From the IMG/VR virus record IMGVR_UViG_2671181118_000003: 4,069 nucleotides of DNA; one strand, 5' to 3'. This document shows, piece after piece, positions 1 through 4,069 of the stretch; positions within the stretch are counted from its first letter, which is position 1, and every line of letters starts with the position of its first letter. The position numbers are program-made. The stretch comes from a virus. Lineage: Duplodnaviria; Heunggongvirae; Uroviricota; Caudoviricetes.

Positions 1-3000
1 GTGGAGAAGTGGGAAAAAGGAAAGATGCGTCTGCTGTGGGATAACAAAAAGCGGCGTAACGAAGCGCTGGACTGCCTGGTGTATGCCTACGCGGCATTAC
101 GTGTGTCCGTGCAACGCTGGCAGCTTGATCTGGCTGTACTGGCAAAATCCCGGGAAGAAGAGACGACCCGGCCAACCCTGAAAGAACTGGCAGCGAAGCT
201 GTCCGGAGGAGTGAATGGTTACAGTCGCTGAACTGCAGGCGCTGCGTCAGGCGCGCCTTGATTTATTAACCGGTAAACGGGTGGTGTCTGTCCAGAAAGA
301 TGGTCGCAGAATTGAATATACGGCGGCTTCTCTGGATGAGCTTAACCGGGCGATCAATGATGCGGAGTCGGTATCAGCGGTAACGTGAATGCGAATTCCG
401 GGACGCTCAACAACGTCACGATTAACGAGAACTGTCGGGTTCTGGGAAAACTGTCCGCGAACCAGATTGAAGGCGATCTCGTTAAAACAGTGGGCAAAGC
501 TTTCCCCCGGGATTCCCGTGCACCGGAGCGGTGGCCATCAGGGACCATTACCGTCAGGGTTTATGACGATCAGCCGTTTGACCGGCAAATTGTTATTCCG
601 GCGGTGGCATTCAGCGGCGCTAAACATGAGAGAGAGCATACTGATATTTACTCCTCATGCCGTCTGATAGTGCGGAAAAACGGTGCTGAAATTTATAACC
701 GTACCGCGCTGGATAATACGCTGATTTACAGTGGCGTTATTGATATGCCTGCCGGTCACGGTCACATGACGCTGGAGTTTTCGGTGTCAGCATGGCTGGT
801 AAATAACTGGTATCCCACAGCAAGTATCAGCGATCTGCTGGTTGTGGTGATGAAAAAATCCACAGCAGGTATCAGTATCAGCTGAATTTTATAACCCAGA
901 ACGGGCGTCAGAAATGACGCCTTTTTTATTGCAGAAAAGCGAGAGGTAATTATGCGTAAACTTTATGCCGCCATTTTGTCCGCAGCCATTTGTCTGACCG
1001 TATCCGGTGCGCCTGCATGGGCGTCTGAGCAGCAGGCCACGCTGAGCGCGGGGTATCTTCATGCCCGGACGAACGCTCCCGGTAGCGATAATCTTAACGG
1101 GATTAACGTGAAATACCGTTATGAATTCACGGACACGCTGGGGCTGGTGACGTCATTCAGCTATGCAGGAGACAGGAATCGCCAGATTACCCGTTACAGC
1201 GATACCCGCTGGCATGAAGATTCCGTGCGTAACCGCTGGTTCAGCGTAATGGCGGGGCCGTCTGTGCGCGTGAATGAATGGTTCAGCGCGTATGCGATGG
1301 CGGGAGTGGCTTACAGCCGTGTGTCGACTTTCTCCGGGGATTATCTTCGCGTAACTGACAACAAGGGGAAAACGCACGATGTGCTGACCGGAAGTGATGA
1401 CGGTCGCCACAGCAACACGTCTCTGGCGTGGGGGGCTGGCGTGCAGTTTAACCCGACCGAATCCGTGGCCATTGATATTGCTTATGAAGGCTCCGGCAGT
1501 GGCGACTGGCGCACTGACGGGTTCATCGTGGGTGTTGGCTATAAATTCTGATTAGCCAGGTAACACAGTGTTATGACAGCCCGCCGATTCAGGCGGGCTT
1601 TTTTGTGGGGTGAATATGGCAGTAAAGATTTCAGGTGTGCTGAAAGACGGCACAGGAAAACCGGTAGAGAACTGCACCATTCAACTGAAAGCCAGACGGA
1701 CCAGCAGCACGGTGGTGGTGAACACGGTGGCCTCTGAAAATCCGGATGAAGCCGGTCGTTACAGCATGGACGTTGAGTACGGTCAGTACAGCGTCATTCT
1801 GTTGGTGGAAGGATTCCCGCCGTCACATGCCGGGACCATCACCGTGTATGAAGATTCTCAACCCGGTACGCTGAATGATTTTCTCGGTGCCATGTCGGAG
1901 GATGACGTCCGGCCGGAGGCACTGCGTCGTTTTGAACTGATGGTGGAAGAAGCGGCGCGTCACGCTGAGGAGGCGAAGAAGAATGCCGGAGAGGCGGAGA
2001 CGTCCGCGAGGAATGCCGGCATATCAGCCAGTCAGGCGGAAGCGAGCGCGGCAAATGCTGACACTTCAGCAGGGGAGGCATCGGAGTCAGCCCGGCAGGC
2101 GGCAGAAAGTGCAGCCGCTGCAAAGAAGTCAGAGGAAGCGTCCTCGTCCTCGGCCTCTGAGGCCGCTCAAAAAGCCAGTGAGTCATTACAAAGTGCAGCA
2201 GATGCTGAGTTGTCAAAAAAGACGGCAGAAAGTGCAGCCGGTAATGCAGCCAGGGATGCAACGACCGCAACAGAAAAAGCCCGGGAGTCAGCAGAAAGCG
2301 CACAGTCAGCGGAACAAAGCAGGATAGCGGCGGAAGAAGCCGTAAACCGAATCCCGACCGTGGTGGGGCCTCCCGGGCCAAAGGGGGAACAGGGGCCCGC
2401 GGGTCCTCAGGGGCCGAAGGGAGATAAAGGAGAGCGTGGCGACACCGGCCCGGCAGGGGCAACCGGTGAACGGGGACCGGCAGGTGATGCTGGTCCGGCA
2501 GGCCCGCAGGGGCCGAAAGGTGACATGGGAGAGCGGGGAGAGACCGGTCTGACGGGAAATGCAGGTCCACAGGGTCCAAAGGGAGATACCGGTGCGGCAG
2601 GCCCGGCAGGCCCACAGGGACCGAAAGGAGAAACAGGTGCGGCTGGCCCGGTGGGGGCAACCGGACCTCAGGGACCGAAGGGCGACCCGGGGGAGACACA
2701 AATACGGTTCCGTCTGGGGCCGGGAAACATTATTGAGACAAACAGCAATGGCTGGTTCCCGGATACAGATGGCGCACTCATCACCGGACTGACCTTTCTT
2801 GACCCCAAAGATGCCACACGGGTTCAGGGGTTTTTTCAGCATTTGCAGGTCAGGTTTGGTGACGGGCCGTGGCAGGATGTCAAGGGGCTGGATGAAGTGG
2901 GCAGTGATACAGGCAGAACAGGAGAATGACATGAATATACTAAAAAAACTTATGCAGCGTCTGTGCGGTTGCGGAAAGCATGATGGCCGTGAACACGGGC

Positions 3001-4069
3001 AGTCGCTTACAGTACAACTGCGACTGGGACCGGCAGACATTCTGGAGTCAGATGAGAATGGCATTATCCCGGAGCAGGCCAGGGTAATCACGCAGGTGGT
3101 GATACTGGATGCGGATAAAAAGCAGATACAGTGTGTGGTAAGACCGCTGCAAATCCTGCGTGCTGACGGGACGTGGGAAAATATTGGCGGGATGAAATAG
3201 CCGACAGCTTCACAAAAACCGGAGTCCGGCTCCGGTTTTTGTTGTCATGTCCGGTGGATGTTTGTTAGGAAACTAAAGGTGGCAAAACTGCTGGAGGTTT
3301 TGTGGTTGAGTATGCCAATATAATTAATAGATTAAAGAGTTAGTTGTGAAGAAAATATGGATAAACAGGACGACGAATGCTTTCACCGATAAGGACAACT
3401 TTCCATAACTCAGTAAATATAGTGCAGAGTTCACCCTGTCAAACGGTTTCTTTTGCAGGAAAGGAATATGAGTTAAAGGTCATTGATGAAAAAACGCCTA
3501 TTCTTTTTCAGTGGTTTGAACCTAATCCTGAACAATATAAGAAAGATGAGGTTCCAATAGTTAATACTAAGCAGCATCCCTATTTAGATAATGTCATGAA
3601 TACGGCAAGGATAGAGAGTGAGCGTATGATAGGTGTTTTTGTTGATGGCGATTTTTCATTCAGCCAAAAGGTTGCTTTTTCAAAACTGGAACAAGATTTT
3701 GAAAATATAATGATAATCTATCGGGAAAATGTTGATTTCAGCATGTATGATAGAAAACTATCAGATATTTATCATGATATTATATGTGAGCAAAAGTTAC
3801 GCTCTGAAGCCAAAAGAGATGAATACTTGTTGAATCTGTTGGAGAAAGAGTTGAGTAAAATTTCAAATGCGCAGGATTCTTTGATTTATATGTATGCAGA
3901 GAAGAGAGATCATACATGGTTTGACTTCTTCAGAAATTTAGCCTTATTGAAGGCAGGAGAAATCTGGTGATGCTGCCAACTTACTGATTTAGTGTATGAT
4001 GGTGTTTTTGAGGTGCTCCAGTGGCTTCTGTTTCTATCAGCTGTCCCTCCTGTTCAGCTACTGACGGGG

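Follow-up and report, generated by a model that had tools for sequence, protein, structure and literature searches.

A conserved paralogue of the fibre tip domain encoded directly downstream of a side tail fibre gene in a defective lambdoid prophage of Escherichia coli

The side tail fibre EPclA was described by Ghosh et al. (2012; PMC3368898) as built of PfN, coiled-coil, collagen and PfC domains. According to the same paper, the PfC domain alone is a trimer by size-exclusion chromatography with multi-angle laser light scattering (SEC-MALLS), makes the distal globule and re-nucleates the collagen helix after melting. In the Shiga toxin 2 (Stx2) phage Sp5 the genes were deleted singly and the fibre gene ORF67 was found to be essential; no frameshift signal was found for ORF68, for which a role as an 'intragenomic reservoir sequence' was suggested (Mondal et al., 2016; PMC5155283). 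A homologue in GenBank entry KU977420 is annotated as 'atfT, alternate tail fiber tip', with a note that predicts a +1 frameshift, a slippery sequence and a pseudoknot. In phage phi24B the PfC-tipped gp61 forms six lateral fibres, and the tip of these fibres was argued to be probably not the BamA binder (preprint, 2026; 10.64898/2026.04.10.717836). Here, we describe the corresponding small open reading frame (ORF) in a stretch of 4,069 nucleotides (nt) of a tailed virus (the window; IMG/VR record IMGVR_UViG_2671181118_000003), which comes from a defective E. coli prophage of the lambdoid type. The small ORF lies directly 3' of the side tail fibre gene stf and encodes a paralogue of the fibre tip that is under strong purifying selection. 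We favour, with about even confidence, the reading that it is a separately initiated late gene, translationally coupled to stf, whose product would be a non-essential accessory partner of the fibre at its distal end.

The small ORF (89 residues; 2931-3200, plus strand) is the same gene as 933W L0122, Sp5 ORF68, phi24B gp59 and AU6Stx1 atfT, which are 92-99% identical and share its length, position and junction with the fibre gene; the identity of the window copy to L0122 is 92.1%. The settings differ in that the ORF follows a lambda-type, EPclA-type Stf of 437 residues in a defective siphoviral prophage here and a podoviral lateral fibre (L0121/gp61) of 645 residues in the Stx phages. It matched PHROG 576 over residues 1-89 of 89 (2.2e-59), and its N-terminal MNILKKLMQRLCGCGK extension, full-length similarity and length of about 89 residues place it in this group. 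The PHROG matches carry the annotation 'tail fiber protein', and the name assigned by the Prokaryotic Genome Annotation Pipeline (PGAP) is 'phage tail fiber C-terminal domain-containing protein'. The gene pair, the paralogy and all three meanings that an earlier note on this DNA had proposed for the small ORF (a displaced ancestral tip, a separately expressed tip or assembly protein, and a substrate for recombinational switching) are already on record. Literature searches by name returned only unrelated papers for L0122/L0121 and none for 'alternate tail fiber tip'. The small ORF is not treated by Matusiak et al. (2025; PMC12309495), and text searches of PMC3368898 gave no mention of a free-standing ORF.

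The stf gene extends from the ATG assigned by PGAP at 1616 to 2929 on the plus strand (437 residues); a mechanical ORF starts at GTG 1610 (439 residues). In a locus of 99.9% identity the gene is named 'prophage tail fiber N-terminal domain-containing protein' by PGAP. Its product has the EPclA-type architecture of PfN, coiled coil, collagen and PfC, with Pfam matches to PF08400 (6e-69), PF01391 (4e-18) and PF06820 (5e-35). The collagen-like Gly-X-Y region (2366-2698, plus strand), which gives the Pfam Collagen match, contains repeated GGNCCNCAGGGNCCGAAAGGNGA units. It is followed by the PfC domain (Phage_fiber_C; 2702-2893, plus strand; residues 365-428 of the 439-residue ORF), which covers positions 1-64 of the 64 positions of PF06820 with 120.1 bits and is the distal globular trimerisation domain of the fibre. 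The AlphaFold2 model of this domain contains three long beta strands, with a predicted local distance difference test (pLDDT) value of 83 overall and of about 90 over the domain.

The small ORF consists of a second PfC domain (residues 28-89; 3012-3197, plus strand) behind an N-terminal extension (residues 1-27; 2931-3011, plus strand). Its PfC domain matched model positions 1-64 of PF06820 with 118.9 bits (1.2e-34), so that both segments cover the model from end to end and far exceed its gathering score of 25 bits. When the fibre (1610-2929) and the ORF (2931-3200) were aligned by BLASTP, Stf residues 365-427 were matched to ORF residues 28-88 with 21 of 63 positions identical (33%), 60% positives, two gaps and an E value of 4e-11. 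The Smith-Waterman score of the pair was 101, compared with 23.3 +/- 3.9 in 5000 shuffles (z = 19.8), none of which scored as high. The earlier note had placed a diverged paralogue of the fibre C-terminal domain at 2700-3200 and had listed RLGP, NG, LD, LQ and DG.W as anchors of the alignment; the paralogy and the coordinates are borne out, and the anchors are near-invariant columns of the family alignment. Over the aligned codons the DNA identity is 55-59%, with 49% at third positions, and the longest identical run is 7 nt between the two PfC coding regions and 11 nt between the ORF and the whole of stf. The low DNA identity, the third-position value and the 7-nt maximum indicate that the duplication is old. 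Compared with the PfC domain of EPclA (PMC3368898), which belongs to the same family, the small ORF is a free-standing copy, 33% identical, that carries an N-terminal helix instead of a collagen shaft.

The N-terminal extension comprises a predicted amphipathic helix (NILKKLMQRL) followed by CGCGKH; AlphaFold2 places a helix at residues 3-12 with low confidence. Single-chain models of the small ORF and of the Stf PfC domain have the same order of beta strands, at matching positions, although the ORF model is weak (pLDDT 59). Searches of the small ORF against PDB sequences gave no match, and the family profile gave only chance matches, to a protein kinase N1 domain. A lipoprotein reading of the LCGCG motif was rejected: there is no hydrophobic signal segment, charged residues stand immediately ahead of the motif, the Citrobacter rodentium homologue has only three residues ahead of it and a more distant lineage has SGGG in its place. 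This replacement also leaves a cystine-knot reading of CGCG unsupported.

The junction AGGAGAATGAcATG (2920-2933, plus strand) holds a Shine-Dalgarno sequence, AGGAG, in the last stf codons, the stop TGA at 2927-2929, one spacer base and the ATG at 2931. Since a scan of species-representative genomes gave only two loci, one in E. albertii and one on a contig that is labelled Xanthomonas but is probably contamination, the comparative set was drawn from 80 related viral contigs of IMG/VR together with annotated loci. The junction TGAcATG, with AGGAG and ATG, is kept in 76 of 78 loci, and the ORF is 89 residues long in 77 of the 78. In the two junction exceptions (L069 848-3500 and L049) stf is replaced by an IS66-family element (tnpA, tnpB and transposase) that ends right upstream of the small-ORF start; the small ORF is intact in both.

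The pairwise ratio of nonsynonymous to synonymous substitution rates (dN/dS) over 66 unique nucleotide alleles of the small ORF was 0.13 for the whole ORF, with values of 0.08 for its PfC part and 0.26 for the N-terminal extension. For the PfC domain of the fibre itself it was 0.22, with dS of about 0.10-0.15, and the small gene is the slower-evolving partner of the pair. The ORF directly follows a PfC-ending fibre gene both here and in 933W (L0121 PfC, 571-634), and the fibre bodies and virion types differ between the two (siphoviral EPclA-type Stf of 437 residues; podoviral L0121 of 645 residues). A phage genome collection holds 296 records with the ORF and 296 with the Stf-type PfC domain; the two lists, compared by their counts and by organism name rather than intersected, have a near-identical breakdown. 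The orthologous group was found in E. coli, E. albertii, C. rodentium and one more distant lineage, and a profile search of 1.8 billion representative proteins showed the family to be nearly confined to Escherichia and its close relatives.

In the distant, non-E. coli lineage, a non-collagen fibre ends in a PfC domain 40% identical to the E. coli tip and is overlapped by an ORF of 80 residues, 54% identical to the E. coli small ORF, with its own AGGAGG and an overlapping ATG. The helix pattern is kept at its N-terminus (MTIFKKIKHCL) and the CGCG motif is not. The small ORFs of the two lineages cluster with one another, and so do the tips; the duplication therefore predates the split. The distant copies (L091 and L092, around 3690-4243) sit in degraded prophages, with effector genes of the NleG and SopA-like kinds as neighbours. 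A nonsense codon interrupts the PfC region of the L092 fibre ORF, which is also fused to a J-like ORF, and the small ORF of L088 carries a frameshift.

These data bear on the proposal that cassette replacement displaced an older fibre 3' end and that the small ORF is what is left of it, decaying and without present function. A displaced tip would be expected where the ORF lies, just past the present end of stf, and the Sp5 orthologue is non-essential (PMC5155283). A decaying relic is nevertheless incompatible with the selection data, the intact start signals and the detected peptides: dN/dS is 0.08-0.13 at a dS of about 0.14, the ORF is intact at 89 residues in all but one locus, the databases hold thousands of members, the orthologous group extends to the distant lineage, and the phi24B orthologue is translated. 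The displaced-tip meaning given in the earlier note is disfavoured on the same grounds, namely the dN/dS of 0.08 in the ORF PfC against 0.22 in the tip, the conserved N-terminal extension and an orthologous group older than the distant split. We regard it as scarcely credible.

Some sites vary within the conserved protein. Position 50 of the small ORF (3078-3080) is D, A, G or V, and position 81 (3171-3173), which falls in the DG-x-W turn, is T, R, V or K. In the Stf PfC domain position 17 (2747-2749) is N, H, Y or Q; the aligned ORF position 43 (3057-3059), just before the invariant Gly of the NG turn, is N or S. These sites may be exposed loops under diversifying selection. As candidate ligand-facing loops they give a slight lean towards an adhesin-like role, which is only a hint.

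One side observation concerns the arrangement of such domains. A metagenomic fibre-like protein of 565 residues (P0235; L087 3505-5202) has a collagen-like region and, on the N-terminal side of it, four units of about 85 residues in tandem, each with an end like that of the small ORF (VVVLDADxxxxxGQMGILQVRRADGTWxEIPALKG), so PfC-like units can occur in series within one chain. Profile matches to long repeat proteins (CarboxypepD_reg, SprB and PKD) were set aside as motif-level beta-hairpin resemblance and not homology.

The junction was also considered as a site of programmed +1 frameshifting, as predicted in KU977420, by which a fraction of ribosomes would move from stf into the ORF frame and yield a fibre ending in a second PfC domain, the 'alternate tail fiber tip'. 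The ORF is in the +1 frame of stf, in most alleles no stop interrupts this frame over the 44-46 codons upstream of the ATG, and the stop context is loosely prfB-like, with AGGAG just upstream and a weak UGA-C stop. In the phi24B proteomics, which used fusion models, fusion and free gp59 are indistinguishable. However, stops are few in the +1 frame of stf (12 in 439 codons), so that an open run of 46 codons is unremarkable, and in five of 46 alleles this frame is open for only 13 codons before the ATG. The sole T run in the overlap (GGGTTTTTT, 2828-2836) is missing, with CTG, ATG or GTG in its place, from 27 of the 46 unique alleles, and a shift at this run would split the first PfC domain. At the stop itself, the P-site codon GAA cannot re-pair with AAU and the AGGAG overlaps the P-site codon; judged by re-pairing, stimulator position and conservation, this DNA lacks a prfB-type site there. 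In the distant lineage the +1 frame is closed by a stop two codons upstream of the ORF ATG. No junction peptide appears in the part of the phi24B supplement that was available, and the search for a frameshift signal by Mondal et al. (PMC5155283) was negative. A Shine-Dalgarno sequence and ATG of its own, conserved in both lineages, are more simply explained by separate initiation, and we consider frameshifting quite unlikely.

A different use of the second copy would be as a silent cassette: spare tip DNA that is occasionally recombined into stf, as suggested by Mondal et al. (PMC5155283) and, as a substrate for switching of the distal domain, in the earlier note. Two chimeras would fit this model. 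In P0066 (L086 4-291) collagen repeats are joined to an ORF-type PfC domain at a shared 11-nt sequence, GGGACCGGCAG, which occurs in the window at 2473 and 3026; in P0173 the N-terminal half of the ORF is joined to the C-terminal half of an Stf-type PfC domain. However, P0173 is a singleton, and P0066 begins three bases from where a contig of a draft assembly ends; either may be a deletion or an artefact, and neither was accepted as proof of tip switching. The longest identical tract between the PfC regions, 7 nt, is far below the length that homologous recombination needs, and that with stf as a whole does not exceed 11 nt. There is neither a recombinase nor a set of inverted repeats, and none of the 175 relatives of the ORF in the database is a full-length fibre with an ORF-type C-terminus. 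A silent cassette would also not keep a start codon, a Shine-Dalgarno sequence and an N-terminal extension under purifying selection. Recombinational switching is thus disfavoured, and we judge a silent reservoir to be very unlikely.

The pair resembles the inversion switches Mu G/Gin, P1 C/Cin, e14 P/Pin and the shufflons in having two adjacent versions of a fibre distal domain. It differs from them in that both PfC copies are on the plus strand and the second has its own start codon. No recombinase ORF was found in the window and no inverted repeats flank the PfC copies; the only inverted repeat within 1500-3400 is a 20-nt pair of 85% identity inside stf. The statement in the earlier note that this is not a Gin/Pin or shufflon switch is consistent with these results.

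The position of the ORF, directly 3' of the fibre gene and translationally coupled to it, is also that of tfa. The ORF was considered as a dispensable assembly chaperone, an analogue of Tfa that would pair transiently with the nascent fibre PfC domain, speed or proof-read trimer formation and be mostly released. In favour of this, the ORF evolves more slowly than the tip that it would serve, only trace amounts are listed for purified virions in the phi24B supplement, the isolated PfC construct of EPclA was undetectable in E. coli unless fused to thioredoxin (PMC3368898) and many Sp5 tail proteins are insoluble (PMC5155283). On the other hand, full-length EPclA and the thioredoxin-PfC fusion trimerise without the small ORF (PMC3368898), and the Sp5 deletion still gives plaques and lysogens (PMC5155283). 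The ORF bears no likeness to known Tfa families: a Pfam scan at E <= 0.1 gave PF06820 alone, and no sequence relationship was found to lambda Tfa, Mu gpU, P2 G or the Caudo_TAP family. Unlike the Tfa proteins, the small ORF has the fibre tip itself as a homologue, and it is dispensable in Sp5. A dispensable chaperone is, in our view, unlikely; by sequence alone it overlaps the accessory-partner reading and is inseparable from it.

The arrangement can also be compared with that of the gp38 adhesins of T2/T6/S16-type phages. There, a small protein encoded after the distal fibre gene could sit on the tip and carry specificity. These adhesins are analogous to the docking version of the model given below and have no homology to the small ORF; gp38 is essential for adsorption in T2/T6/S16-type phages, whereas attachment of the small-ORF product to the fibre is a proposal.

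The accessory-partner reading is preferred because the ORF has a fixed linkage to fibres with a PfC tip, can be dispensed with in Sp5 and is present in trace amounts in phi24B virions. With the PfC-tipped fibre gene ahead of it, the ORF makes up a conserved module of two genes. Ribosomes that end stf at TGA 2927-2929 would meet the AGGAG and find the ATG one base on, and the small protein would be made in step with the fibre. The predicted product begins with a short amphipathic helix, continues as a PfC beta domain and has neither a shaft nor a tail-attachment domain. Because the fibre's own PfC domain is a self-trimerising knob, the small protein is most likely, by analogy, a homotrimer, which would form a 'mini-knob'. 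It would either dock on the tip of the fibre or help the tip to assemble, and would thereby modulate adsorption; we infer both that it associates physically with the fibre and that it affects adsorption. Docking as an extra adhesin and help in tip assembly are kept as one combined reading, at the same even confidence, as they cannot be told apart from the sequence. The orthologue in phi24B is translated: the virion proteomics supplement (bioRxiv 10.64898/2026.04.10.717836) lists the peptides VITQVVILDADKK and ADGTWENIGGMK, unique to the small ORF, with three counts each. Together with the AGGAG and ATG and the purifying selection, these two peptides make the separately expressed tip or assembly protein the favoured one of the three meanings first offered.

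Several observations weigh against this reading. Nine Sp5 genes were needed to form plaques on K-12 and to lysogenise it, and ORF68 was not one of them (PMC5155283); recombinant EPclA forms trimers without the small ORF (PMC3368898). It follows from these two results that the small protein is not an obligatory chaperone or an obligatory tip. In the phi24B supplement, the C-terminal peptide of the fibre has 47 counts against the three for each small-ORF peptide, so that the product is sub-stoichiometric and could be carry-over; hypothetical fusion sequences were also searched there, and the depositors themselves labelled the row of these peptides 'Spike or just gp59?'. Alleles of the fibre tip and of the ORF showed no covariation in excess of decaying linkage (mean Cramer's V of 0.18 between the genes and 0.29-0.39 within them). 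Finally, the AlphaFold2 model of the small ORF is of low confidence, with a pLDDT of 59.

A two-part mixed tip, in which a minority of fibres would carry a second distal PfC 'bead' of different sequence, is possible but rather improbable. The bead would be either an ORF trimer docked non-covalently on the PfC knob or a covalent extension made by low-level +1 recoding at AGGAG-GAA-UGA-C, and the same rather low probability applies to these two forms taken together. If true, a single pair of paralogous genes would provide two receptor specificities within the same population of virions.

The remainder of the window contains the C-terminal end of the terminase gpA (1-231), the gpW gene (215-388), the C-terminal receptor-binding part of the tip protein J (385-885; PF12421) and lom (952-1551). 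The gpA end and gpW are fused straight onto the J part; this direct join indicates that every head and tail gene between W and the end of J has been deleted, which makes the prophage defective. In related genomes the match to the window starts only at about 369-372, and the stretch 372-3965 is present in complete E. coli genomes at up to 99.9% identity. An nleB effector fragment of the SseK/NleB family (3377-3970; model positions 1-187 of 317) is broken off after codon 197 by an IS1 terminal sequence (about 3966-4069); in the closest genome IS1 is inserted in the same gene at another point. A hairpin with a T run that resembles an intrinsic terminator (3212-3242, plus strand; RNA fold of -23.4 kcal/mol, z = -5.3 against shuffles) lies directly 3' of the small ORF and closes the unit of stf and the small ORF ahead of the nleB cargo gene. 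Strong terminator-like hairpins also stand at 903-922 and 1578-1599, on either side of lom. Judged by these three hairpins, each of lom, the stf-ORF pair and nleB seems to be bounded as a unit of its own, and late antiterminated transcription would read through these units.

The present analysis narrows the options, arguing against a relic and against a cassette for homologous recombination, and reveals nothing of a new kind. In enterohaemorrhagic E. coli, most lambdoid and Stx-converting prophages have PfC-tipped fibres, and these prophages carry Shiga toxin and type III effector genes. For a paralogue of the tip that is conserved and expressed, the obvious candidate roles are those of a second adhesin or of an assembly factor, and knowledge of its role would help to explain how such phages cross O-antigen barriers.

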